From NCBI GenBank assembly GCA_019704295.1, contig AP024596.1:96001-160000 (forward strand): a DNA stretch of 64,000 nt, given 5' to 3'. The notes beneath the pieces were generated by a model. The model had not been told where the DNA came from, made no database searches, and saw only the letters and a program-made list of their open reading frames with translations. This document shows positions 6,047-20,191 of the stretch, one piece after another. This DNA comes from Sulfolobales archaeon HS-7 (GTDB taxonomy: Archaea > Thermoproteota > Thermoprotei_A > Sulfolobales > Sulfolobaceae). Numbering within the stretch: the first letter of the stretch is position 1; every line of letters begins with the position of its first letter. A program made the position numbers and the translations under genes.

Positions 6047-7067
6047 GAAACTTCTCCTTCTAACTTTCGCACTGGTTTCGGTTGCACCCCTAACATACGT
6101 AGGAACTGTGACAGGTTTCACGAATGGGCTGTTAGGAGGTCTCCTTTCGCTATCTTACTTTGTAGTGATTTACGTTCTCTTTACCAAGAAGGGATGGAAA
6201 AGTACGGGTTTCTATGGTTACCTTGAGCAAAATAAATTCCTCGCAACTCTTCAGACGTTATCTTGGATCGGAAGTTATTCGTTATATGTTATCTATACGC
6301 CTTATTATATTTCCCTATACGTTCTTGGCTTATCGGGTATGTCGGCTATATTACTCTCCGTGATACTGTATTTCGTATCAGCAGTAATAGTGAAGTCGAA
6401 ATACGCTTACTACTCCTTAATTCCGATAGCTGTAGTTAATGTAATAGGTCTAATTTTTCCTAGAATTTCCTTTTCCACCTCATTACCCACAGTTAACGGG
6501 CTGTTGTCTGCTTCCCTTATACCTGTTTGCATAAACCTGCTACTCTATAACAAAGGGGATAAGACAGACTCATGGGTAGTTCTCCCAGCATTCGTGCTAT
6601 CCTTTATAGGGATAATTATCGCTTCACTATCCCACTATACAGCTCCCGCCTTCTCCTATCTTTTGGGAATATCAAACTTAGGACTCATATTGGCGGAGTT
6701 CATAGCCTTACGCAATCTCATCAGTGGAATTACAGTGAAAGGAGATACATTTTTCAACGTGCTTATCCTTATCGGAGGAGTGGTAACTTTAATTGGTTCG
6801 ATTAATCCCTACGCTTTTTATCAGCTGACTATTGTTCCCTCCCTAACATTACTCTACTTCTCGTTAATTCTGGGTTTCGGATTTCTTGGAACTTTTCGTA
6901 GGGTTTTCCTGTTATCTTTTATACCTGCATTTCTCTTCGGTTACGGTCTGTACTCCGTTATTTCAACGGCATCCGGCATACTTCTGTATGAGAGCCTCTT
7001 CTCAATGCTCATAATTTCAGGCTTATCTGTTTCACTATATCTTATGCAGTCCAAGATGACGGATTAG
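6039..7067 (+). CDS. Multi-pass membrane protein (APC-like N-terminus)
   Basis: ~11 TM; SVAPL and GFYGY motifs resemble APC permeases; overlaps the upstream gene. Confidence 0.55.
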   Translation: MSRKLLLLTFALVSVAPLTYVGTVTGFTNGLLGGLLSLSYFVVIYVLFTKKGWKSTGFYGYLEQNKFLATLQTLSWIGSYSLYVIYTPYYISLYVLGLSGMSAILLSVILYFVSAVIVKSKYAYYSLIPIAVVNVIGLIFPRISFSTSLPTVNGLLSASLIPVCINLLLYNKGDKTDSWVVLPAFVLSFIGIIIASLSHYTAPAFSYLLGISNLGLILAEFIALRNLISGITVKGDTFFNVLILIGGVVTLIGSINPYAFYQLTIVPSLTLLYFSLILGFGFLGTFRRVFLLSFIPAFLFGYGLYSVISTASGILLYESLFSMLIISGLSVSLYLMQSKMTD

Positions 7068-7347
7068 CTGCCTTTTCCCTTTTCTTATGTCTATTCTTTG
7101 AATCTATTGCTTCAAGAATGAGCCATAGTTCTGACGCGTCGCGTGTCTTCAGAATCTCCCATATCCTCTTAGCCGTCTTATTAAACCCTATCGGGATCAG
7201 GCCGTGGCTGGTAATGAACTTAATCTCGCAAATCTTACCGTATAGGTAAGCTAATTCCACGCTCTTAGGATTACCGTTAAAGATCTCCATCAGTAAATCC
7301 CGCCCTATCACATCTGCTCGTACGAAAATTTCCTTGTGTGTCCTCAT
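7042..7347 (-). CDS. Hypothetical protein
   Basis: 101-aa ATG ORF with an AT-rich upstream region; no recognisable motif. Confidence 0.4.
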   Translation of the reverse strand: MRTHKEIFVRADVIGRDLLMEIFNGNPKSVELAYLYGKICEIKFITSHGLIPIGFNKTAKRIWEILKTRDASELWLILEAIDSKNRHKKREKAANPSSWTA

Positions 7348-7543: not shown

Positions 7544-7695
7544 TCACGTGTTCATTACGAATTTAGTTTATTTAGAAAAATAGAATGAATTTGATTGAAT
7601 GTCGTTGTGTGGACTAGGTAGAGATTCGCACTTAACAATTTCTTTTATTTAATTGCAATTTGCAATAATTACAATTCGCAATGGAAGCTGAATCG
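7544..7695 (+). repeat. Dispersed repeat family A, copy 1 (~150 bp, stem-bounded)
   Basis: Aligns with 22087-22239 (rc) and 47395-47544; arms CATTACGAATT 7553-7563 and AATTCGCAATG 7673-7683. Confidence 0.85.
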
Positions 7696-7702
7696 CCGCA
7701 CC

Positions 7703-8638
7703 CTATAAAGATTCGAAATAATCTTTATCTATTTCCTTCAAAGAGTAACTCTGAATTTCTCTGACACCTACCATATTTTCGATCATTAATGACGCCAATT
7801 GAATACCATCAATGAGAATTATAATGTGGTCAGAATCTTTTTTAGCCGTCTCTATGGCTTCTTTGCTAAATTTTGCCGTAGTTATAAATATCCCCTTTTT
7901 GGCATGTTTAATCGTTAATGCACCTATGAAGTCCCTTATTTCTTTAGCTCCCACAGTTTGGTTTCTATTCCAACGCTTTGCTTGAAGGTATATCTTGTCA
8001 AATCCTAATTTATCTTGTGAAATTTCGCCATCGATTCCTTGGTCATTCGGTTGGCCAAGAACATTTGCCAATTCCTCGAAATTCTTTCCATATCCTAATG
8101 CCAATACTAGGTCTATTATAATTCGTTCAAAATCGGCTGGTTTTACATTCGATAAAACATTTAGTAAATCATTCGCTAATATCTTGTCTCTTTTTTTGAA
8201 AATCTCGGCAATTTCTTCATCGGGAGTAGATTCAGGTTCTTTCATTTCTTTTTGATAATTGGGCTTGTTCCTTCCCTTATTTCGCTTTGTTCCTATGAAC
8301 TCGACAAACGAGGGGAACTTTTCCAAATAAGTATAACGCACTCTCTCCGGAATAATCTTTGCCTCATTTTTCCCCTCATCAGAAATCTTGTACTTCGAAC
8401 GTCCTGTTCTGATTAAAAGGCCAGCCTGAACTAAGTAGGTGATGGCCCAGGATATCCTATCATAAATATACGTTCTCGTACCATTTGGCATTAGGCGATT
8501 CCTCTGCTCTTCATTTAGATTAAATTGCCTTGACATCTCTTCAATGGTTTCAGATAAGTCGTGCTCCTTACCATCACTGGCAAATCTTAATATGGGGGCT
8601 AAAAACTCATCAAATCTTGGTAGATCTATTTCCGTCAT
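7703..8638 (-). CDS. mrr: Mrr type IV restriction endonuclease
   Basis: Mrr_N wHTH (PIL..ASDGKEH...R.SWAITYL.QAGL) plus catalytic domain (P..FE, DQGIDG...IYLQAKRW, IRDFIGAL, KGIFITT, LIDG). Confidence 0.95.
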   Translation of the reverse strand: MTEIDLPRFDEFLAPILRFASDGKEHDLSETIEEMSRQFNLNEEQRNRLMPNGTRTYIYDRISWAITYLVQAGLLIRTGRSKYKISDEGKNEAKIIPERVRYTYLEKFPSFVEFIGTKRNKGRNKPNYQKEMKEPESTPDEEIAEIFKKRDKILANDLLNVLSNVKPADFERIIIDLVLALGYGKNFEELANVLGQPNDQGIDGEISQDKLGFDKIYLQAKRWNRNQTVGAKEIRDFIGALTIKHAKKGIFITTAKFSKEAIETAKKDSDHIIILIDGIQLASLMIENMVGVREIQSYSLKEIDKDYFESL

Positions 8639-8729
8639 TCAATCTTCACCTTTGTCTTATCATACGTCTTTGTGGTCTTGGCTTCTTTATTTTCTTTTGT
8701 CTATACCATAACGTAGATTTATTCAGTTT
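8635..8729 (-). pseudogene. Frameshifted 3' fragment resembling the C-terminal HTH tail of a solo/casposase-type Cas1
   Basis: Reads KLNKSTLWYRQKKIK then, after one missing base, (E)AKTTKTYDKTKVKIE*; stop overlaps the mrr start (ATGA). The Cas1 resemblance is from memory, not a search. Confidence 0.5.
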
Positions 8730-9010
8730 CCAGAAATTCCATTGCTGAGTAATCTACAACGGAACAATTCCTGTAGATCGTAAACGAGAGGCCCTACGCG
8801 CTTCGTCCCTAACACAGTTATGGGGATAAAGAGTCCAGAACCACCTACATCAACATGACAGTCCTTAACGTTCTTAGGCTTAGGTAACTTGGACTTACTC
8901 ACGACTAAACCCTTATACACCACCTCTGTAATAACGTGGTCACTGACGCTAGTGCTTGATTTTCCCCGTGGAAGAAGCCTAAACGGATTGAACATCTTCG
9001 CCAGCCTCAT
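8723..9010 (-). pseudogene. Hypothetical protein fragment
   Basis: Protein-like central part (KGLVVSKSKLPKPKNVKDCHVDVGGSGLFIP...); N-terminus runs into repeat B and C-terminus into the mrr segment. Confidence 0.3.
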
Positions 9011-9014
9011 AGGT

Positions 9015-9260
9015 CTATCTTATAAAATTCAGCGGTTTATGACCCTCAAGAACGTTGAACTCTAAGCTAAAACCTCGCTAGAAAAGCTCGTTGCTAGCCT
9101 TGATTATCGAAAATCACAAAATTATTTGTGATTATATTTAATAAATTAATTTTATATTATTGTTCTCCTCGTAATTAAACGAATTTGATTCTAGACTAAC
9201 GTGTTTATAATTTTTTACTTTATCTAGTTAATTACATTAATTATACATTGAACATTTTCA
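9015..9260 (+). repeat. Dispersed repeat family B, copy 1
   Basis: TTCAGCGGTTTATGACCCTCAAGAACGTT...CGCTAGAAAAGCTC matches 41126-41180; CTCCTCGTAATTAAACGAATTTGATTCT...AACGTGTTT...TTTATCTAGTTA matches 43957-44025. Confidence 0.7.
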
Positions 9261-9353
9261 CGTTTACCACCAGATGAGAAAGTGGATAATAGAATCACCT
9301 TTATAATATATATCTGATAAAGTTTGAGTCGTCAGTGAATAAAATTGTGGACA

Positions 9354-9577: not shown

Positions 9578-11653
9578 ATGAAAAGAACGGATGTGGTTGA
9601 ACCTCTTCGAGGAAGAGGAGGATTTGTGGACGATTTCGACTATAAGGGAAAATACGTTTCGTTTGTAAGGAGTCCTTATCCACACGCAAGGATTTTGAAG
9701 ATCGATTACACCGACGTTACAAGAAAAGGGGGACACGTTTTTACCGGTAAGGATATCCGACTCTCCGCTGTGAGAGCGGGAGAAAGGGAAGGAGGTGAAA
9801 CCTCTTCAATTTTAGCTAGGGACAAGGTAAGATACCTAGGAGAACCCGTAACAATGATTGTAGGGGACGATCCCTATCTACTTGAGGATTTAAAGGAATT
9901 AGTTGTAGTTGATTATGAGCCTCTCGAGCCTATTTCCTCCATAGAAAGGGCACTTAAAGACGACGTATTAGTATTCGAGAATTTAAAATCGAATTTGGTG
10001 CTTAGCAGGGAAACCTCATTTGGTTCCCTCCCAAAGAATGATAAACAGATAGAGCTTGAACTTTACTGGTCTAGAAGCTCTGGAAACCCGATCGAACCCT
10101 ACGCTGCAGTTGTTATTCCCCAAGGGGACTCATTAAAGATAATATCTAATCAGCAAGCCCCTTATGCCGTTATTCAGGAAGTAGAGAAAGCTGTTGGCGT
10201 TAAAATAAATCACATCCCTGCAAGACATGGTGGAAGTTTCGGCGCTAAATTCTCCCTTTCTAAATACCTGACCGTTCTAGCATACGCCTCTAAAAAACTG
10301 GATCTACCTCTTAAGTGGATCGAGACCAGAACGGAACATTTGCTCGCCTCTAACTCCAGTGGGCCAGAAAGGAAGTTCAAGGCTAGAGCGTACTTTAAAC
10401 CTTCAGGTGAGGTCACTGGACTGGACTTCGAGATATGGGAGGATATCGGGGCGTCCACTTTTGCAGGACAGCCATTCAAGCCTACCGGCATCTTAGCAGG
10501 TCCTTACAAAATAAGGAATATCAGGTACTTAGTAAATCTAGTGGCCACTAATAAGAATCCTCCTGGTGCATTTAGAGGAGCTGGTACTCCTCCTCATACT
10601 TGGGCTTTAGAAAGGGTCATGGATAACATAGCCGACGAATTGGGTATTGAACGCAGTACCGTAAGAAAGATTAACTTAATCGACTCCTTTCCATACGAAG
10701 CCCCATATGCAGTATACGAATCGGGTAATCCGAGAAAATTACTGGAGCTGGCTCTATCAAGGAATGACCTTTTCTCGCTTCGTAATAACAATATAGGTGT
10801 AGGTATAGCAACCTCGACAGATCCCAGTACACCCTCGGGTTCTGAGGGAGTCAGACTGTCAATTAAGAATGGAAAAATCGTCATAGGTCTAGGATATGGC
10901 CCTGAGGGTCAGGGAAATGAGGACAGTGCGCGGATCTTAGTGTCGAAGTTTCTAGATATACCGATAGACATGGTGGAATATCAGATAATGGATAACATGA
11001 CAGCACCGCAGTCATTCGGACCAGGCGGAAGTAGAATGGCGGCTTTCCTGTCAGGCGCAATAGCAGGAGCTAGTGAGGAATTATTAGCGAGACTCAGAAG
11101 AAAGGCCTTCTCAATACTAGGTGAAGGGTTGGAGTACAAGAGCGGTCATTTCTATAACGATAGGGGAAAGCTATCAATAACCCAACTCGGGGAGGAGAAT
11201 GTGGATTTCATATTCTCCTTGCAGAGTAAAACTAGGTTCAATGCCTATCCCTTTGCATGCGACGTTGCCGTTGTTAGAGTAGACGAGGATAAGATAACGC
11301 CAATCAAGCAGGTCGTATACATTGATTCAGGAGTTCCGATAGATGAAGATCTCGTAAAGGAACAGGTAATAGGAGGGACCGCAATAGGCATTTCCCTAGC
11401 TCTCTATGAATCATATAAGTACTCAGATGACGGATACCTCTTAACAACATCCCTTGCTGATTACGGAATGCCCTCAGCCGCTGACCTCCCAGAAATAGAG
11501 GTCAACATTGAGTATACCCCCTCTACGTCAAACCCTTATGGCGCAAAGGGAATAGGGGAGATCCCTGTAGGTGTTGCAGCTGCGGCGGTAACCAGTGCCG
11601 TAGAAGACGTAATAAAAAGGAAAATCACCAAGATACCTATAGTGCCCCTCTAG
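9578..11653 (+). CDS. Xanthine dehydrogenase/aldehyde oxidoreductase-family molybdopterin large subunit (CoxL/CutA-like)
   Basis: FVRSPYPHARI, GGSFGAK, GAFRGAG, GQG, GSR, QVIGG, GAKGIGE motifs. Confidence 0.9.
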   Translation: MKRTDVVEPLRGRGGFVDDFDYKGKYVSFVRSPYPHARILKIDYTDVTRKGGHVFTGKDIRLSAVRAGEREGGETSSILARDKVRYLGEPVTMIVGDDPYLLEDLKELVVVDYEPLEPISSIERALKDDVLVFENLKSNLVLSRETSFGSLPKNDKQIELELYWSRSSGNPIEPYAAVVIPQGDSLKIISNQQAPYAVIQEVEKAVGVKINHIPARHGGSFGAKFSLSKYLTVLAYASKKLDLPLKWIETRTEHLLASNSSGPERKFKARAYFKPSGEVTGLDFEIWEDIGASTFAGQPFKPTGILAGPYKIRNIRYLVNLVATNKNPPGAFRGAGTPPHTWALERVMDNIADELGIERSTVRKINLIDSFPYEAPYAVYESGNPRKLLELALSRNDLFSLRNNNIGVGIATSTDPSTPSGSEGVRLSIKNGKIVIGLGYGPEGQGNEDSARILVSKFLDIPIDMVEYQIMDNMTAPQSFGPGGSRMAAFLSGAIAGASEELLARLRRKAFSILGEGLEYKSGHFYNDRGKLSITQLGEENVDFIFSLQSKTRFNAYPFACDVAVVRVDEDKITPIKQVVYIDSGVPIDEDLVKEQVIGGTAIGISLALYESYKYSDDGYLLTTSLADYGMPSAADLPEIEVNIEYTPSTSNPYGAKGIGEIPVGVAAAAVTSAVEDVIKRKITKIPIVPL

Positions 11654-11656
11654 CCC

Positions 11657-12034
11657 TTAGAAGAAAAGCGATCTGTCAGCATCTAATGTAAGGTCTATGA
11701 GCGTGGAACCCCCTACTATACTTACGTCAGATATTACCTGGTCTTCTCTCATATGGCACATATCCTTCAAACTCTGAATACAAACGTACATTTTAACTCC
11801 GTTATCTTTTGCCATATCAAAAAACCTGATAAACGGGTTATCCCCTTTTTTCCTCTCCTCCTCTTGCCACTTTTTATCTAATAGAAGAGGTCCCTTTATC
11901 ATGAAAAATACTGACGTGTCCATTTCCATGGAGGCTGCTATCGATGCCATAAACATTGGGGCATACGTCCTGTCTATATCCTCTGGACCGTGGGTAACTA
12001 CAATCAATATTTTCTTCTTCTCTTCCTCAGCCAT
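11657..12034 (-). CDS. dsrE3A: Sulfur-trafficking protein DsrE3A
   Basis: [14 protein letters not shown], Cys-X7-Cys (CIQSLKDMC); divergent from dsrE2B-tusA as in Sulfolobales sHdr loci; GGTGA SD before the ATG at 12034. Confidence 0.85.
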
Positions 12035-12210
12035 AAACTTCACCAAAAAGATGTTACTAATACTAGATTAAATTTCTTTCTTTTAGCATTAACTAGATTA
12101 TGTCATAAACTTTACGAAATTTGTGTAGTAATAAAAATCAATAATATTTTTGTTTATCTAAATAAGGGAAAACTTAAAAATTAATACTCAAATAATGAAA
12201 TGGTGAAAGT

Positions 12211-12633
12211 TTGTCTCAGGACAAGAAAAAAGTCTCAATAATAGTTTTCTCCGGTCAACTGGATAAACTAATGCCCGTTGGGATAATAGCGAGTGGAGCT
12301 GCTGCGAGCGGATGGGAGGTTAATTTGTTTTTCACTTTTTGGGGACTCAACGCGCTAAGAAAGGACATGTTGGAAAAGAACACAGTAATTAGTAAGGAAT
12401 TTGAAAGTTACGCTCCTGCAATAATGGATGCAATGAAGAAAATGAATTACCCTCCATGGTTCGAATTAGTCAAGCAGGCTAAGGAGGTAGGGGAAGTTAA
12501 GGTATTTGCGTGCTCTACTACAATGGAGATGATGGGTGTTAAGAGAGAGATGTTACCAGAATTCGTTGATGACATTGTGGGTGTAGCGACTTTTCTAGAT
12601 AGAGCCGAGGGAGGAATCACCTTATTCATTTGA
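12211..12633 (+). CDS. dsrE2B: DsrE2-type sulfurtransferase
   Basis: SGQLDK, FFTFWGL, FACSTTMEM, VGVATFL; TTG start after GGTGA. Confidence 0.85.
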   Translation: MSQDKKKVSIIVFSGQLDKLMPVGIIASGAAASGWEVNLFFTFWGLNALRKDMLEKNTVISKEFESYAPAIMDAMKKMNYPPWFELVKQAKEVGEVKVFACSTTMEMMGVKREMLPEFVDDIVGVATFLDRAEGGITLFI

Positions 12634-12634
12634 G

Positions 12635-12880
12635 GTGGTAGAGGTGAGCGTAAAACCTGTGAAAACGGTCGATGCAAGGGGCATGTATTGTCCAGGACCT
12701 GTTATGGAAACTGCAAAGGCAATTAAACAGATTAATGTAGGCGAAGTGTTGGAAATTTTAGCAACGGATCCCGCAGCGAAGCCGGATATTGAAGCTTGGG
12801 CAAGAAGAACAGGAAACGAGATTTTGAATATAGAACAGCAGGGAGATGCTACCAGAATACTTATTAAAAGAGTTAAATAA
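12635..12880 (+). CDS. tusA: Sulfur carrier TusA
   Basis: DARGMYCPGP motif, GEVLEILATDP, DIEAWA. Confidence 0.95.
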   Translation: MVEVSVKPVKTVDARGMYCPGPVMETAKAIKQINVGEVLEILATDPAAKPDIEAWARRTGNEILNIEQQGDATRILIKRVK

Positions 12881-12931
12881 GAGTTTTTATAATATAAAGG
12901 TTTTTTATATTGTTTGAAAGTACGTTATTAG

Positions 12932-13774
12932 GTGTTTGAGTTGGCCACAGTAAAGTTATCCTTACCCGAGGACCCAAGATATCTCGACATGTCATATGCT
13001 GAGCAAGGACCTCTACCAGAGGAAATGAGAAATTTGGATCAGCTTTCGGAAAAAGATAGAAAACTAGCACTAGAATTTTACCAATCGCTTGCTTCCGACT
13101 TTAGATATAACGAATACTTAAGGGGATGCCTCAATTGCGGGGTTTGTACTTCGAGCTGTCCCGCTGCTAAATTTTACGATTTCGGTCCTCGTGAAATGAT
13201 ACAATACATGATGCGAGGCGAGTACGACAAAATTTATGAGTTCACTAACGAGAAGGTTTGGGCATGTGTCCAGTGCTATACCTGTAGTATGAGGTGTCCT
13301 TTCAACAATGAGATAGCCGGATTGATCATGCTACTGAGGGAGTACGCAGTTAAGTTCGGCTTGGAGTCCGCTAAACAAATACTTGCTCCTTATAGACGAA
13401 TATTGTTAACAGTTCTCACTACGGGTAATCAAGTTACGCCAGATATGATACAACCGGAAACATTTGCGGACTGGGGACCGCAGGCCTTAGAGGAATCAAA
13501 AAACATGGATGTCTACAGAAAAGCTATACCTGTGGACCTAATGCAGAGAACGGATATCGGATGGCATGCCTCCTTACAAACTGCAGTGGAACTCATGACT
13601 ATAATGATTGAAGCCGGGGTTATAGAAAGCCTGAAAAATATTGATAAAGATCTATACGATATGATCATCGACATTTATGAGGAAAGGAAGCAATTCCTTG
13701 AGGAAATAAAGGAGAAATATCAGAAAGGTGAATTAAACGAGGAAGAGCTACCCGATAGCTGGCTAGATTTATAA
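12932..13774 (+). CDS. shdrC1: Sulfur-oxidising Hdr-like complex subunit C1
   Basis: Two CxxCxxCxxxCP 4Fe-4S motifs; first hdr gene after tusA. Confidence 0.9.
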   Translation: MFELATVKLSLPEDPRYLDMSYAEQGPLPEEMRNLDQLSEKDRKLALEFYQSLASDFRYNEYLRGCLNCGVCTSSCPAAKFYDFGPREMIQYMMRGEYDKIYEFTNEKVWACVQCYTCSMRCPFNNEIAGLIMLLREYAVKFGLESAKQILAPYRRILLTVLTTGNQVTPDMIQPETFADWGPQALEESKNMDVYRKAIPVDLMQRTDIGWHASLQTAVELMTIMIEAGVIESLKNIDKDLYDMIIDIYEERKQFLEEIKEKYQKGELNEEELPDSWLDL

Positions 13775-13866
13775 CATAAAGTTCGTCAGTTGTGCAATTT
13801 ACTCATTTTGTCATTTTTTTGTGATTTAGACAGAAATCATGATATTTTATTAATAAAAACTTTTTA

Positions 13867-13881
13867 AGTATCAATGATACT
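13867..13881. promoter_or_regulatory. Perfect 7-1-7 palindrome AGTATCA-A-TGATACT, candidate operator
   Basis: Directly after the TTTTTAA TATA-like box and before the GGTGA SD of shdrB1; related ATCATGAT at 13836. Confidence 0.4.
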
Positions 13882-13902
13882 ATTTTGATTAGGTGAATTT
13901 GT

Positions 13903-15201
13903 TTGGAAAGTTCAGTAGAACAGAACCCTGAGAGGGAGATGGAGAGAGCATTTCCCAATGACCTGGATTGGGAGGAAATATATCAAAGGGTTATTTACAA
14001 GTATAGCTCACCCCATGGTATTCAACATATTAAAGAACTTATGTACAAGCTCGAGGATAAAGGGGAAATTATAGTCCAACACATAAAACCCAGCAATAAC
14101 CCAGTGGAATATCAAACAATAAATGGAAACCCCAAGAAAATTCCAACTACCAAATTGTGGAACCATAAGTCGTGCGGGCAATGCGGACATATCCCAGGGT
14201 ATCCGACGTCGGTTTTCTGGATAATGAATAAACTCGAGACTGATTACGTTGACGAACCACACCAAACATCATGTACAGGTTGGAATTATCATGCCTCAGG
14301 CGCTTCTAATCCCGTTGCACTAGCAGGTGTCATGGTTAGGAATTTCTGGAGAGCCTACGAAATAGATTATTACCCCCTAATTCATTGCGGAACTTCGTTC
14401 GGTCATTACAAGGAAATCAGAAACATGCTAATACTTCACGACGAAGTAAGGCAAAAGCTTAGACCAATAATGAGAAAACTTGATATGGACATAGTGATCC
14501 CTGAAGAAATTGTTCACTATAGTGAGTGGCTTTACGTAAATAGCAAAAGGGCTGCGTCTCATAAGAGATACGACCTGTCTGAAATAAAGGCCGCGGTCCA
14601 TACGCCATGCCATGTATATAAGTTAGTACCAGATGATACAATTTACGATCCAATAGTGTATCAGGGGAGAAGACCAGCAGCACCTACCGGAACAGTGATT
14701 AATTTCGGTGCAAAACCAGTGGACTACTCCACATGGTGGGACTGCTGTGGTTTCGGATTCAGGCATATACTTACTGAGAGGGAATTCACGCGATCTTTTG
14801 CACTTTTCAAAAAGGTTGTCCCAGCAGTAGAGGAAGCAAATGCTGACGTGTTTGTCACAAGCGATACTGGATGTGTTACTACGCTTGACAAGAGTCAGTG
14901 GGTTGGCAAGGCCCATGGATACAACTATAATCTCCCTGTTTTAGCTGACGCTCAGTTCGCAGCACTTGCTATGGGTGCTGATCCATATAAAATAGGTCAG
15001 ATTCATTGGCATGCTACAGACGTCGAAGGATTCCTAAGGAAGATAGGGGTTCCCATCCAGGAGTATAAGGAACAATTTATTCAATATCTTCAAGATATTA
15101 AAGAGGGAAAGGCTGAAACGGAGTTCCTCTATAAACCTCATAGGAAAATAGACTTTTACTTAGCCCTTCCTGACAGAGTTCAGTATGAAAGACCTCAATA
15201 G
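13903..15201 (+). CDS. shdrB1: sHdr subunit B1
   Basis: HKSCGQCGHIPGY, QTSCTGWNYH, HCGTSFGHY, WWDCCGFGFRH, DTGC signatures. Confidence 0.93.
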   Translation: MESSVEQNPEREMERAFPNDLDWEEIYQRVIYKYSSPHGIQHIKELMYKLEDKGEIIVQHIKPSNNPVEYQTINGNPKKIPTTKLWNHKSCGQCGHIPGYPTSVFWIMNKLETDYVDEPHQTSCTGWNYHASGASNPVALAGVMVRNFWRAYEIDYYPLIHCGTSFGHYKEIRNMLILHDEVRQKLRPIMRKLDMDIVIPEEIVHYSEWLYVNSKRAASHKRYDLSEIKAAVHTPCHVYKLVPDDTIYDPIVYQGRRPAAPTGTVINFGAKPVDYSTWWDCCGFGFRHILTEREFTRSFALFKKVVPAVEEANADVFVTSDTGCVTTLDKSQWVGKAHGYNYNLPVLADAQFAALAMGADPYKIGQIHWHATDVEGFLRKIGVPIQEYKEQFIQYLQDIKEGKAETEFLYKPHRKIDFYLALPDRVQYERPQ

Positions 15202-15209
15202 GTGTCATT

Positions 15210-16292
15210 ATGGAGAAGAAAGTATTAGTTATAGGAGCAGGGCCAGCAGGACTTTCAGCCACTAGAGAATTAGTTAATATGGACGTGGATGTAATACTTG
15301 TCGAAAGAGAGGCATGCCTTGGAGGAACACCGAAGAAACTTAATTACAGCCTTCTATTCCCTGAGTTAAGACCCGCTTCAGAGGTAATTGATCCCCTAAT
15401 TAAGGTCGCTAAGGAAAGTCCACGAGTTAAAAAATACGTAAACAGCATAATAGACTCAGTTAAAGAGAGTGAGGACGGATTTGAAGTCTCAATCAAAGAT
15501 AAGGAACAAAAGGTCTCCACAGAAAGAGTTTCGGCAATAATAGCGGCTTCAGGTTTTGAACACTTTGACTCTAGAAGGAAATACGAATACGGTTATGGAT
15601 TAATTCCTAATATATATCAAATCTCCGATATTGAGAGAATGCTAAGTGAAAACAAATTAGTGACGACTCGTGGAGTTCCCCCAAAAAGAGTGGCGATACT
15701 ACTCTGCGTTGGTTCTAGGGATGCAACGGTAGGGAATACCTATTGTTCTAGGGTTTGCTGTGCGGTCTCTATAAAGCAGGCCATGGAGATAAAGGAGAGG
15801 GTACCTGATGCAATAGTACATATCTACTATATGGACATAAGGACGTATGGACTAATGGAAGATAAGCTGTATTGGAGATCGCAATTGGAACACAGAGTGG
15901 GTTACATAAGAGGTAGAATTTCCGAATTCATGAGAGGACCAAACGACACCGTCATTATAAAAGGAGAGGACACTATGAATCTCAACAGAGCTCTTGTTGT
16001 GCCATATGATATGGTTATACTCGCTAACGGAATGGAATTAGGTTTAGGTTCTGCACAGGTGGCAAAGGTCTTAGGACTGCGGTTAGAGGAACACGGATTT
16101 ATAAAACCTTTAGATCCGGATAGACTTCCTGTAGTATCTCAAAGGAAGGGAGTATTCCTGGCGGGTGCATTAACGGGACCGAAGACAATGTCGGATTCCA
16201 TAACTGAAGGTCAAGCTGCAGCCATGAAAGCTTACGAATACGTAACGAAGGGTATATGGGAATACGAAGAGATAAAGGTGACTGCACATTAA
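15210..16292 (+). CDS. shdrA: sHdr subunit A (FAD, 4Fe-4S)
   Basis: GAGPAG Rossmann motif, LCVGSRD...YCSRVCC; short HdrA-like length (360 aa). Confidence 0.93.
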   Translation: MEKKVLVIGAGPAGLSATRELVNMDVDVILVEREACLGGTPKKLNYSLLFPELRPASEVIDPLIKVAKESPRVKKYVNSIIDSVKESEDGFEVSIKDKEQKVSTERVSAIIAASGFEHFDSRRKYEYGYGLIPNIYQISDIERMLSENKLVTTRGVPPKRVAILLCVGSRDATVGNTYCSRVCCAVSIKQAMEIKERVPDAIVHIYYMDIRTYGLMEDKLYWRSQLEHRVGYIRGRISEFMRGPNDTVIIKGEDTMNLNRALVVPYDMVILANGMELGLGSAQVAKVLGLRLEEHGFIKPLDPDRLPVVSQRKGVFLAGALTGPKTMSDSITEGQAAAMKAYEYVTKGIWEYEEIKVTAH

Positions 16293-16344
16293 GCAGACAC
16301 TGAATTTAGTTGACATTCATAGTATTACCGAAATTTATAATGCA

Positions 16345-17025
16345 ATGATGGCCAAGGACATAAAGAACACTGGAGGAAATCCAAAGGAATCGATAGAAAT
16401 AATTAGAAAAGCCATGGAAGTTAAGAGCGATTTACTGAAAAATAAGCGAATTTCGAGTGCTAAAGACGTAATGGAAATTTTTTCGATGATATTTTACCTG
16501 AGGAGAAGTGTAAATTCAATAGTGGAGCAGAATAGTATCGCGGAAATCGCGTCAGCTATTGAGAAACTAAGGGATACATCCCTTCCATACGAGGAAAGAG
16601 AAAAGGCATTGATCACTGTCAAGGGGGCTGAAAAAGAGGACTTAGAGGACGCTTCTAGAGAGATAATTCACTTTATCCAACCAGGGGTTTATCCGCTTTG
16701 GACAAGATGGATATGGAATCCTATGAGGAATACAGGTTCACTTACCTACGTTCTTAAGGAGGGTGTAAGGCTAGAAAATAAAGAGCAACTGTTTTCTGCA
16801 TTTAATGAAATCAGAACTGTTCTCGAAACGTTTAATCTAAACACAGGTAACTACTACGGCCTCTCCATATTCTTAGTTTACGCGTATGTTAGGTACTTGG
16901 ATTACACCACACTACTCGCAGTTGATAAGAAGGCAGCAGGACTTCTTCCAACCCACCTAAGTACAACGGCGATGGTGTTAGGGGTAAAACAGTTAATAAG
17001 GGGGATCAATTACGCCAATAGCTGA
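16345..17025 (+). CDS. shdrH: sHdr-associated conserved protein (hyp/sHdrH)
   Basis: Position between hdrA and hdrC2; [14 protein letters not shown]....TGSL motif. Confidence 0.8.
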
Positions 17026-17701
17026 AGTCGAGAAGAAAATAATCAAGGGGTTAATAGAGAAAGATAAGGTAATAGTTGACGGTGTGGAAGTTGATGGCAC
17101 ATGGAATGCATTCATCATAGACAGGACTCAAACTGGCTTTGATACGTCTGTATGGGATAAAATAGCCTCAACAGTAGAAGGTAATACGATCAGTCTGTGT
17201 TGGCAATGCGGAACATGTACTAGTGGTTGTACGGCGCGTGAATACGACCCCAATTTCAGTCCGCGGAGATTTATCGATTTAGCAAGGAAGGGAGATAAGC
17301 AATCATTACAGGAACTGGAATCTAGTCTATGGAGATGCTTCTCGTGCCAGAAGTGCACACATAGATGCCCTAAAGGCGTACTTGTGGAGGAGGTAGTTCA
17401 CGCCATTCACAACTACGCTCTGGAGGAAGGCTTAGTCAGAAAAGATCCAGGAACTAAGTTTGATGAGCTATTCCTAAAGGCCGTTATGGATAACGGAGGG
17501 AGGATTTCTGAATTACTCCTAGGTTCTATGGCGGCGAAATACGGTATGGTGTCGTTAAGCCTTAAAGATCTAATCAACGTTTCGTCTGCTCTTCTTAAAA
17601 CAGGTCTGATAAAAACTGTAATGAATCCGGAAAAAGTAAGAAACTGGGAGAAGATTAGAAAAGTATTGGAAAATGCAATGAAGGAGGAGATTAAACTATG
17701 A
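17012..17701 (+). CDS. shdrC2: sHdr subunit C2 (probable non-canonical ACG start)
   Basis: [11 protein letters not shown] and [12 protein letters not shown]; frame open from 17000; ACG at 17012 follows a GGGGAT SD; first canonical start is GTG 17084. Confidence 0.88.
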
Positions 17702-18606
17702 CCGAAACCTATGGAAAAGTCGCATTCTATCCGGGATGTGCCCTCGACGGGCTGGGAAAGCCTTATGAGGTTTCAATTCAATTGGTTGCTAACGATTTAG
17801 GTTTAAAGTACGAGAGGTTAGATGACTATAATTGCTGCGGTGCACTCGAAGTTAAGAACGTAAACACAATGGCAGGTTTCCTATTACCAGCAAGAAACCT
17901 CTCCTTGGCAAATAGGGTAAAAGCGAACACGGTAATGTCGGCATGCCCAGGTTGTCACTACTCCCTATCAAGGACTCACTACTTCATGTCCAAATACGTT
18001 AAGGTTAAGGATAGGGTCAACTTCTACCTAAAAGAAATGGGAGAACTTCCATATGAGAACAACTTATTTATGATCCATGTAGTTGAATTCATTAGGAACG
18101 CTTTCGGACCTGAAAAACTTAAAGCAATTGTAAAGAGACGGTTCGATGGACTAAAAGTTGCACCTTATTATGGTTGTCTCTATGTGAGGCCGAAGCAATA
18201 TCTTCAAACTGGGTATATGAAAATTAAAGACGATCCTGAGAGACCGGTTTTCATGGACGAGCTACTACAATCGATAGGAGCGGAGCCGGTCCAATTTGAG
18301 GCTAAGGTGATGTGCTGCGGTGGTCCACACGTATATTCCGACGCCGAAACCTCAATGCATTTGGAGGCAAGGATCATAAAGGAGGCAGTCAGGAACGGTG
18401 CTGAACTGCTTATCACGGACTGTCCATTAGGACATGTTGCAATAGAGACTAACATGACAAAAATTGAGAAAAAATACGGCGTAAGGATATCTCTAGTTTA
18501 CTTTACTCAGTTACTGGCGCTAGCATTGGGACATTCCCCAGAGGAGGTAATGTTAGATGCTAACATCACAAGACCAATGGACGTTCTCAAAAAATATTTA
18601 CGATGA
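17698..18606 (+). CDS. shdrB2: sHdr subunit B2
   Basis: Two CCG domains (YPGC, NCCG, ACPGC, YYGC, MCCGG, DCPLG). Confidence 0.92.
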
Positions 18607-18651
18607 AAGGATTTATAAAAAATGAAGAGTAGAGAGGAGTGGTGAGAGAAT

Positions 18652-19095
18652 TTGGTAGTAGAAGCTGGGTGTGAGATTCCTGAGGATCTAAGTTATTACA
18701 TAGAGGGTAAAAACACTGTATGGGTAAAGCCTGAGGGCGACGTGATAATTGTCGGTATAACTGATATTGCCCAAACTATGGCTGGAAAAGTAGTAAAGGT
18801 AAGGGTAAAGAGGAAGGGAATAAAGGTCGATAAGGGGAGACCAGTAGCGACTATGGAGAGTGGTAAATGGGCAGGACCTGTACCTGCGCCCGTGTCAGGG
18901 GAGGTGATCGAAGTAAACGAAGCTGTTGAGAAAACTCCTGTTATCGTAAATCAAGATCCTTATGGAAAGGGATGGCTGGTTAAGATTAAACCAAATAGCT
19001 CAGATGAGGTAAAGCAGCTATTATCAGGTCAACAGGCTCTTGACAAGCTAAGGCAGATAATATCATCTGAAAAAGTTCAGTGTAAGAGGCTATGA
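18652..19095 (+). CDS. lbpA: Lipoate-binding protein (GcvH-like)
   Basis: VGITD.AQ, MESGKWAGP lipoyl-lysine motif, NQDPYGKGW, N- and C-terminal Cys. Confidence 0.9.
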   Translation: MVVEAGCEIPEDLSYYIEGKNTVWVKPEGDVIIVGITDIAQTMAGKVVKVRVKRKGIKVDKGRPVATMESGKWAGPVPAPVSGEVIEVNEAVEKTPVIVNQDPYGKGWLVKIKPNSSDEVKQLLSGQQALDKLRQIISSEKVQCKRL

Positions 19096-19096
19096 T

Positions 19097-20191
19097 ATGA
19101 GCTGGAGGTACGTCAGGTTACCTCCTCAAGATCCTTATCATATGATTACATCTTTTCTGGCTGTAGGGGATCACGTCTCAAAAGGTACTAAAAACACCAT
19201 GTTAGTTTTTAACTCTTTGGAAACATTCGTTAATGTCGGTTTCCATCAAGAAGTATGGCTTGAAGTAGATCTGGATTACGTAAGGAAAAACGGAATACCT
19301 GTAGTTAGGAGGGATGTCGGAGGGGGAACAGTGGTGATTACCCCTGGCGAGGTAGATTACTTCCTGGTTATGAAAAGCGAAGACGCTCCAACAAACCAAT
19401 CGGAACTCTATAAAAAGTTCTTAAGCCCAGTTGCTAGTTTCCTTAATTCTTACGGAGTAAAAGCGGAGATCAGGGAGCAGGATATAGTAGTTGGAGGAAG
19501 GAAAATAAGTGGAAACGGCGCTATGACACGAGGTAAGTCAGTTATCCTTGCTGGAAACGTTTTAGTTGACGTTGACGTAAACGTTATTGCTAAGTGCCTC
19601 AGAGTTCCCAGTGCGAAATTCAGGGATAAACTAGCTAAGGAAATGAGTGAATGGATAACTAGTATGAAAAGGGAAACAGGAAAAACGCCATCTGTGGAGG
19701 AGGTTGCAAAAGGGTTGAAAAAAGCATTTGAAGAGGCGGGTTTTTCATTTTCTGAGGAGGAGCTAACCGAGGATGAAGTGAGAGATTGGAACCGCTTGGC
19801 AGAGGAGAAGATGAGGGAAAGCTGGATATACTATAAGGATTTAAGACATCCCGAATTAAGGAGTGAAAGATGCGTTAAAATAAACTTCTCAGTGACGTTG
19901 TGTCATGTCGATTATAAGGCAAGGAAACTGATAAGAATTACCGCTAAATTCTCTAAGGAAAAAGTAGAAGAGGTCTCTATATCAGGGGACTTCTTCGTTT
20001 TAACTCCTAGAGATTTCGTTGAGAGATTAGAGGATAGAATAAGGGGAATAAGGGTCGGGGACATAGAACAAGTTATACGAGATACGTTTAACGAATTCCG
20101 CCCCACAATATTCGGATTTGACGAGAACGATTTAATTAACGCCTTTAACGAGATGTTGATAAAGCCTGAAGTACAGGAAATAATTAGTTAG
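19097..20191 (+). CDS. Lipoate-protein ligase (sLpl-type)
   Basis: [36 protein letters not shown]-terminal ISGDFF domain. Confidence 0.88.

Follow-up and report, generated by a model that had tools for sequence, protein, structure and literature searches.

The mrr locus of Sulfolobales archaeon HS-7

[quoted passage not shown] It consists of a single contig of 2,151,177 bp with a GC content of 39.6%, and the isolate is the sole representative of its genus among the genomes that we compared. We analysed a window of 64,000 nt (positions 96,001-160,000 of the contig), whose own numbering is used below unless a locus label or a genome position is given. It includes an intact gene for a type IV restriction endonuclease, mrr, which is preceded by remnants of a casposase gene and framed by decayed host repeats (Table 1). 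The protein has both domains of its family (Mrr_N and Mrr_cat in Pfam, E 2e-24 and 8e-30), matches the PADLOC model mREase_IV for type IV systems with an E-value of 1e-71, and carries an unaltered nuclease motif, D...QxK, in an alignment with eight homologues, in agreement with the published definition (D/E)..(D/E/Q)xK (PMC3874153). A sequence search found no solved structural homologue.

Positions 9578-20191 hold, as read from the translations, a gene for a CoxL-like molybdoprotein followed by a dsrE-tusA-sHdr-lipoate sulfur-oxidation cluster, which is usual in Sulfolobales. On the downstream side of repeat A lies an orphan ORF of 101 aa (7042-7347, reverse strand). We considered this ORF as casposon cargo and rejected it, as it has no match in Pfam, in the HS-7 genome, in the casposon loci or in the Atlas.

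Table 1. Features of the mrr locus, in positions of the window
Feature	Position	Strand	Basis or remark
Repeat A, one copy of a host MITE of ~163 bp with short imperfect inverted ends	7544-7698		End facing mrr adjoins the foreign DNA
Foreign segment in full, about 1.09 kb	7698-8791	-	Limits of homology to L001 and L090
Intact mrr, type IV restriction endonuclease, 311 aa	7703-8638	-	Mrr_N winged helix and Mrr_cat
Family-2 casposase relic, C-terminal HTH tail (residues ~383-413 in Cas1 of L007)	8635-8729	-	Net 1-nt deletion
Shine-Dalgarno-like GGTGA in the cas1 tail, 7 nt ahead of the mrr start codon	8646-8650	-	Read from the sequence; putative function
Chimeric 95-codon frame over repeats B and C and a Cas1 scrap	8723-9010	-	Probably not a gene
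Second casposase relic, catalytic region (residues ~259-281 of L007 Cas1)	8724-8791	-	5-nt deletion
Repeat C, one copy from a MITE-like host family of ~187 bp	8788-8975		Shares 3-5 nt with the catalytic-region scrap of Cas1
Repeat B, right end (~280 bp) of a decayed IS-like element of 1.27 kb that has inverted ends of ~50 bp	8976-9263	+	Repeat comparison
TATA-like TTTTATAA in repeat B, directed towards mrr	9020-9027	-	Candidate promoter only

Casposase remnants upstream of mrr

The initial annotation took the stretch before mrr for the tail of a casposase-type Cas1 that lacks a single base and whose TGA overlaps the mrr start codon. This is confirmed. The two reading frames before mrr yield the peptide that was quoted. 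The stretch 8729-8635 has 95 nt where intact homologues have 96, a net loss of one nucleotide, and its TGA (8637-8635) overlaps the ATG of mrr (8638-8636) as ATGA. The peptide does match Cas1: the tail is recovered by tblastn (E 1e-5) and by nhmmer, and it belongs to a longer DNA match to a cas1-mrr pair. When a DNA profile of casposase genes was run with nhmmer against the whole 2.15-Mb genome it returned only two matches, both at this locus (8728-8635, E 5.3e-8, and 8791-8724, E 1.5e-8), so that the resemblance exceeds chance. The annotation was correct about the tail and too narrow about the extent of the relic, which does not end with these 95 nt and reaches 8791 through a scrap of the catalytic region. 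Aligned to the casposon relic L105 described below, this second scrap has a score of 54, whereas shuffled sequences reach at most 24. Between it and the HTH tail about 300 nt have been deleted, with a short GAAA microhomology at the point of fusion. The two scraps stand in the correct order, with the ATGA coupling to mrr preserved; both are non-functional and nothing more than relics. A 37-nt resemblance to the deleted middle of cas1 occurs elsewhere in the genome, between a host polymerase gene and a copy of repeat B (G000:C1:881894-881930). It is probably due to chance (E 0.5-0.7), being unsupported by closer casposases or by nhmmer.

The match to casposon DNA is continuous. From 8730 to 7698 the window is 84% identical over 1035 nt to the cas1-mrr pair of the metagenomic locus L001, where a Cas1 gene lies directly upstream of an 84% Mrr homologue and where the neighbouring proteins fall into 90% clusters with proteins of Thermoplasmatales. 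A second locus, L090, also shows 84% DNA identity to the HS-7 segment. Homology to both stops at 7698, which is 5 nt beyond the mrr stop codon, and at 8791.

Old host repeats frame the segment

A segment of ~1.1 kb had been proposed to be bracketed by repeat A on one side and by a truncated ORF plus repeat B on the other. The repeats are real, A (7544-7698) and B (first delimited as 8985-9263) having about 82 and 89 BLAST matches genome-wide. The truncated ORF is not: the frame 9010-8723 is a chimera built of the antisense strand of repeat B, of a third repeat, C, and of 11 Cas1 codons, and has no Pfam match. Repeat C has about 30 BLAST matches in the HS-7 genome, and the three repeats together about 200. 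The copy of repeat A found here is damaged at its far end and lacks a target duplication. In the best-kept copies of its family this duplication has ~8 bp, and 11 of 48 full copies keep at least 6 nt of it; most copies of repeats A and C have lost theirs. Repeat B is 77% identical to positions 992-1274 of a full copy, and its family contains frameshifted transposase-like frames, for which a Pfam search of the element gave no match. No intact autonomous partner of these families was identified in the genome, which has at least four families of decayed repeats (A, B, C and one of ~410 bp) nested within one another.

The flanking copies are old, reaching no more than 80-86% identity with the best sister copy of each. 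Repeats A and B are found in other Sulfolobaceae, and the Thermoplasmata loci contain none of the three. The framing of the segment by repeats must therefore have occurred in the host lineage. Moreover, host repeats abut both ends of the segment within 6 nt. The chance that a random base lies so close to the end of such a repeat is roughly 0.2%, a crude figure that is higher for intergenic DNA, and the repeats are thus the probable cause of the trimming. We also considered whether repeats A and C had formed a composite transposon and captured the segment in this way. This is unsupported: they belong to different families, share no common target duplication, and the outer end of A is damaged.

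Casposons of the donor type in Thermoplasmata

Intact relatives of the cassette reveal what it was once part of. One of them, L007:1997-13781, from the Thermoplasmata bin LSA5.bin55, is a complete and intact-looking family-2 casposon of 11.8 kb inserted at a tRNA-Val(TAC) gene. It encodes a family-B polymerase of 883 aa, an HNH protein, two HTH proteins, a Cas1 of 413 aa, Mrr and a type IIG enzyme of 897 aa; cas1 overlaps mrr by ATGA and the type IIG gene comes next. The polymerase was identified by its motifs and by Atlas features, having no match in Pfam or NCBIfam. Cas1 is closest to the casposase of M. mazei (6OPM, E 5e-76), and the match takes in the C-terminal region. [quoted passage not shown] All that defines family 2 was found in it: Cas1 with its HTH, PolB, HNH, HTH proteins, TIRs, target duplication and tRNA target. 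The casposon of A. boonei targets tRNA-Pro (PMC5137440), which the targeting by L007 parallels, and restriction-modification (R-M) cargo on casposons was already known (PMC4046053). L007 also carries a 459-aa gene with a weak match to PADLOC PDC-M36A.

The element L090:8817-13818 is a non-autonomous derivative of 5 kb, which has kept both TIRs and the 14-bp duplication. An internal deletion fuses polB and cas1 in it, and the mrr and type IIG genes are intact. A second TIR-like end, facing outwards, is found at position 8802 of that locus. Intact cas1-mrr pairs are further present in CP009479 and L107, and relatives with visible casposon ends are located at tRNA 3' ends. The complete L007 and the deleted L090 add new members to family 2, located at tRNA-Val and other tRNAs. 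Because so close a relative as L090 is internally deleted, cas1 is commonly decayed in the donor lineage as well, and as the nearest relatives carry a broken cas1, part of the decay seen in HS-7 may predate the transfer.

Distribution and phylogeny of mrr

The proteins closest to HS-7 Mrr come from metagenomes (79-85% identity). They are followed by copies from Cuniculiplasma, Marsarchaeota, Nanopusillus, Micrarchaeaceae and Nitrososphaerota, bacterial Mrr being at about 42%. None of the 350 other genomes of the class has an orthologue; among the 351 searched, four others have weak matches only, to the Mrr catalytic domain and within longer proteins. In a quick maximum-likelihood search with midpoint rooting, HS-7 Mrr groups with the copies of L001, L002, L090 and L103 (SH-aLRT 92), and this group lies inside a clade with the Cuniculiplasma copies (SH-aLRT 98). 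The nearest homologues are found immediately behind cas1 in Thermoplasmatales casposons and are not Sulfolobales genes, contrary to what vertical inheritance predicts.

The cas1 tail is a frequent companion of these genes. A profile built from the final 150 nt of cas1 reaches 37 bits before HS-7 mrr, against 6.3 bits for the highest-scoring of 1020 shuffles. It exceeds the best shuffle in 16 of 23 loci of the clade and in none of 10 distant Mrr loci, counts that are not independent, since 3 of the 16 positive loci helped to build the profile and several are close kin. A scar of this cas1 tail precedes mrr in L008, L108, L112, L005, L014, L016, L019, L020 and L103, whose hosts include a Nitrososphaerota bin and Cuniculiplasma. 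In Nanopusillus (L110) mrr is preceded by a resolvase gene instead. The scar marks many mrr genes of the clade, and so the cargo of casposons survives the element itself.

A casposase and a casposon PolB of this type were found in only 1 of the 351 genomes of the class, that of Ca. Marsarchaeota G2 ECH_B_1 (G052), as a relic (L105:7137-12747) with one TIR, a polB tail and a split cas1 at 73% identity; the cargo of this relic is of the glycosyltransferase type. The 46 other Sulfolobaceae genomes have neither protein. A carrier virus or plasmid was sought as well: casposase relatives are absent from IMG/VR and PLSDB, and the segment is absent from phage records.

A fragment of a casposon, not a casposon

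The ancestry of the segment in a casposon is nearly certain. The segment itself is a casposon-derived fragment with an intact mrr and not a casposon, being negative in four of the five defining tests. The family-2 Cas1 with its C-terminal HTH is present in HS-7 only as the two scraps (residues ~259-281 and ~383-413). The L007 PolB has no match anywhere in the genome, the HNH and two HTH core genes have no significant match by tblastn or blastn, and the type IIG gene of the cassette has left no trace. Neither terminal inverted repeats nor a 14-15-bp target duplication were found near the locus. It has no tRNA gene, the nearest tRNA call being more than 180 kb distant, and no tRNA of HS-7 is followed by a TIR. 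A TIR look-alike at genome position 1,530,217 is a chance match: it is perfect over 17 nt with an E-value of 0.03, has no tRNA, and lies apparently in coding DNA just upstream of a PIN-domain gene.

How did such a fragment arrive? One might speculate that a complete casposon used its casposase to integrate in the HS-7 lineage and that IS and MITE activity of the host afterwards eroded or displaced it, which would mean that casposons can transpose in Sulfolobales. The relic in Ca. Marsarchaeota G2, with its TIR, polB tail and split cas1, is in the same class; HS-7 is rich in decayed repeats able to erase casposon ends, and the flanking copies are old. But this is at odds with the lack of any TIR, target duplication, polB, HNH or type IIG trace in HS-7, with the distance to the nearest tRNA, and with 46 other Sulfolobaceae genomes free of casposase and casposon PolB. 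We therefore hold this course of events to be unlikely. Entry of a fragment is favoured over integration by casposase at this site, and arrival as an already broken piece appears the most likely.

Selection on mrr and its possible expression

Compared with the nearest copies HS-7 mrr has a dN/dS of 0.11-0.15 with a dS of 0.56-0.70, and the pN/pS on its terminal branch is 0.11-0.16. Given this dS to the nearest relatives, the actual donor is unsampled. These comparisons show a gene that is intact and that bears the signature of purifying selection on the HS-7 branch, even if most of this selection may have been exerted in the unsampled donor lineage, before the transfer. The GC3 of the gene is 0.35, as in the donors, and that of host genes 0.37-0.44.

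Translation might make use of the GGTGA motif, which is also found before mrr in L001, L002 and L014; this resemblance to a ribosome-binding site may be the reason why the cas1 tail survives. For transcription there is a lead only, the TATA-like motif in repeat B (9027-9020), because two substitutions suffice to make it; it is unique to the copy at this locus among 14 aligned copies of the repeat. A sigma-70 promoter scan gave fewer sites than shuffles, with a model that is unsuited to archaea.

The Mrr family restricts methylated DNA, and the Mrr domain by itself does not determine the preference for methylated or unmethylated substrates (PMC3874153). The HS-7 genome encodes several N6/N4 methyltransferases and a single C5 methyltransferase, with which an active Mrr must therefore be compatible. 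Three N6/N4 frames of 790-874 aa (G000:C1:73147, 323123 and 443571) are possibly type III Mod-like; antagonism of E. coli Mrr to type III modification has been reported (PMC3152355).

These elements also lend themselves to a less favourable reading, in which the casposon ancestry is right and mrr is a silent passenger, severed from the cas1 promoter and not yet decayed. The donor promoter upstream of cas1 has indeed been lost, the sole candidate to replace it is the TATA-like motif at the end of the decayed IS element, and the host methyltransferases are possibly incompatible with Mrr. Yet 933 nt free of stops and frameshifts stand beside 155 nt of cas1 with three deletions, pN/pS is low on the terminal branch, and the trimming ends 5 nt past the stop codon and spared the ribosome-binding site. 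A silent gene seems to us an improbable outcome, and HS-7 Mrr is, on this pattern of conservation, quite likely a working enzyme.

Probable capture of a casposon cassette and its meaning

The initial annotation had proposed that mrr came from a cas1-mrr cassette of a Thermoplasmatales casposon-like element. This is borne out by the 84% match to the cassette, by cas1 upstream of the closest homologues and by the complete element L007. We propose that the segment is probably the remnant of a cassette of a family-2 casposon of acidophilic Thermoplasmatales, gained horizontally and likely as a broken piece; a co-habiting member of this order is a plausible donor. Its source would be the R-M cassette of cas1, mrr and type IIG genes, and in the HS-7 lineage MITE and IS elements of the host would have inserted at either side. 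Deletions would have left only mrr, the cas1 tail with the ribosome-binding site of mrr, and one further scrap. Mrr could now act on its own as a type IV nuclease, cleaving incoming DNA that bears foreign methylation, its gene transcribed perhaps from the upstream IS remnant.

Two other origins deserve little credit. An assembly chimera with a contaminating Thermoplasmatales genome might account for a gene found in HS-7 alone within the class, but the assembly is closed, hybrid and long-read and comes from an isolate (PMC8459659), both junctions carry repeats of host families, and the sequence is 16% diverged from every donor compared, with deletions that these lack; such an artefact is very improbable. 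The even weaker idea that the scraps stem from a CRISPR-associated cas1 or from chance A-rich matches, beside a native mrr, can call upon the A-rich tail and upon the CRISPR cas4-cas1 and adjoining cas genes that HS-7 has at 1.49 Mb (G000:C1:1489888-1494947, unrelated to the relic), and has against it a C-terminal HTH that among Cas1 proteins is exclusive to family-2 casposases (PMC4046053), the coupling of the relic to mrr, and CRISPR Cas1 proteins of the class that share only about 19-43% identity with the casposase and fail to align with its tail. It is refuted by DNA identity of 84% unbroken from the tail through mrr, by the lack of an orthologue in the 350 other genomes of the class and by a genome-wide casposase profile with its two matches here.

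The HS-7 locus is a case of horizontal capture of a defence gene with a clear scar of provenance, and no new mechanism is shown by it. Gene flow between Thermoplasmatales and Sulfolobales is known, and so are the other ingredients, casposons with R-M cargo and trimming by IS elements. The value of the locus is to provide a clean record, at the nucleotide level, of a defence gene moving from a casposon to another archaeal phylum. Its scraps are the only trace of casposon DNA among 47 Sulfolobaceae genomes, and none is reported in the literature searched. That a family-2 casposon actively integrated in an ancestor within Sulfolobales, and that casposons cross from Thermoplasmatota to Thermoprotei, is a doubtful proposition. 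If it were true, then, with the Marsarchaeota and Nitrososphaerota relics, one clade of casposons would be a carrier of the Mrr and type IIG pair across phyla, and the spread of this defence pair in acidic springs could be traced by the cas1-tail scar.

Comparison with known systems

The closest known kind to the HS-7 repeats is presumably that of the SM-type MITEs and IS remnants of Sulfolobales. They resemble Sulfolobales MITEs in their short length, multiple copies, inverted ends and nesting, and repeat A also in its ~8-bp duplication. HS-7 Mrr shares with Mrr of E. coli K-12 (PF14338 and PF04471) the two-domain build and the D...QxK motif (PMC3874153). It differs in belonging to a clade of acidophilic archaea, with 50-85% identity inside the clade and about 42% to bacterial Mrr.

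Among casposons the reference is family 2, as in AciBoo-C1 of Aciduliprofundum boonei and MetMaz-C1 of Methanosarcina mazei, whose casposase has been solved (PDB 6OPM). L007 is like them in PolB, HNH and HTH proteins, TIR ends, 14-bp duplication and tRNA 3' target (PMC4046053, PMC5137440, PMC10359463). The HS-7 relic has their Cas1-HTH, whereas the piece as a whole is devoid of ends, PolB, working Cas1 and tRNA site. Family 2 was described from Euryarchaeota, whereas the host here is a Sulfolobales archaeon. Finally, the donor-type clade adds to the described family 2 a tRNA-Val target besides tRNA-Pro, and a pairing of mrr with a type IIG gene that is undescribed in the literature searched.
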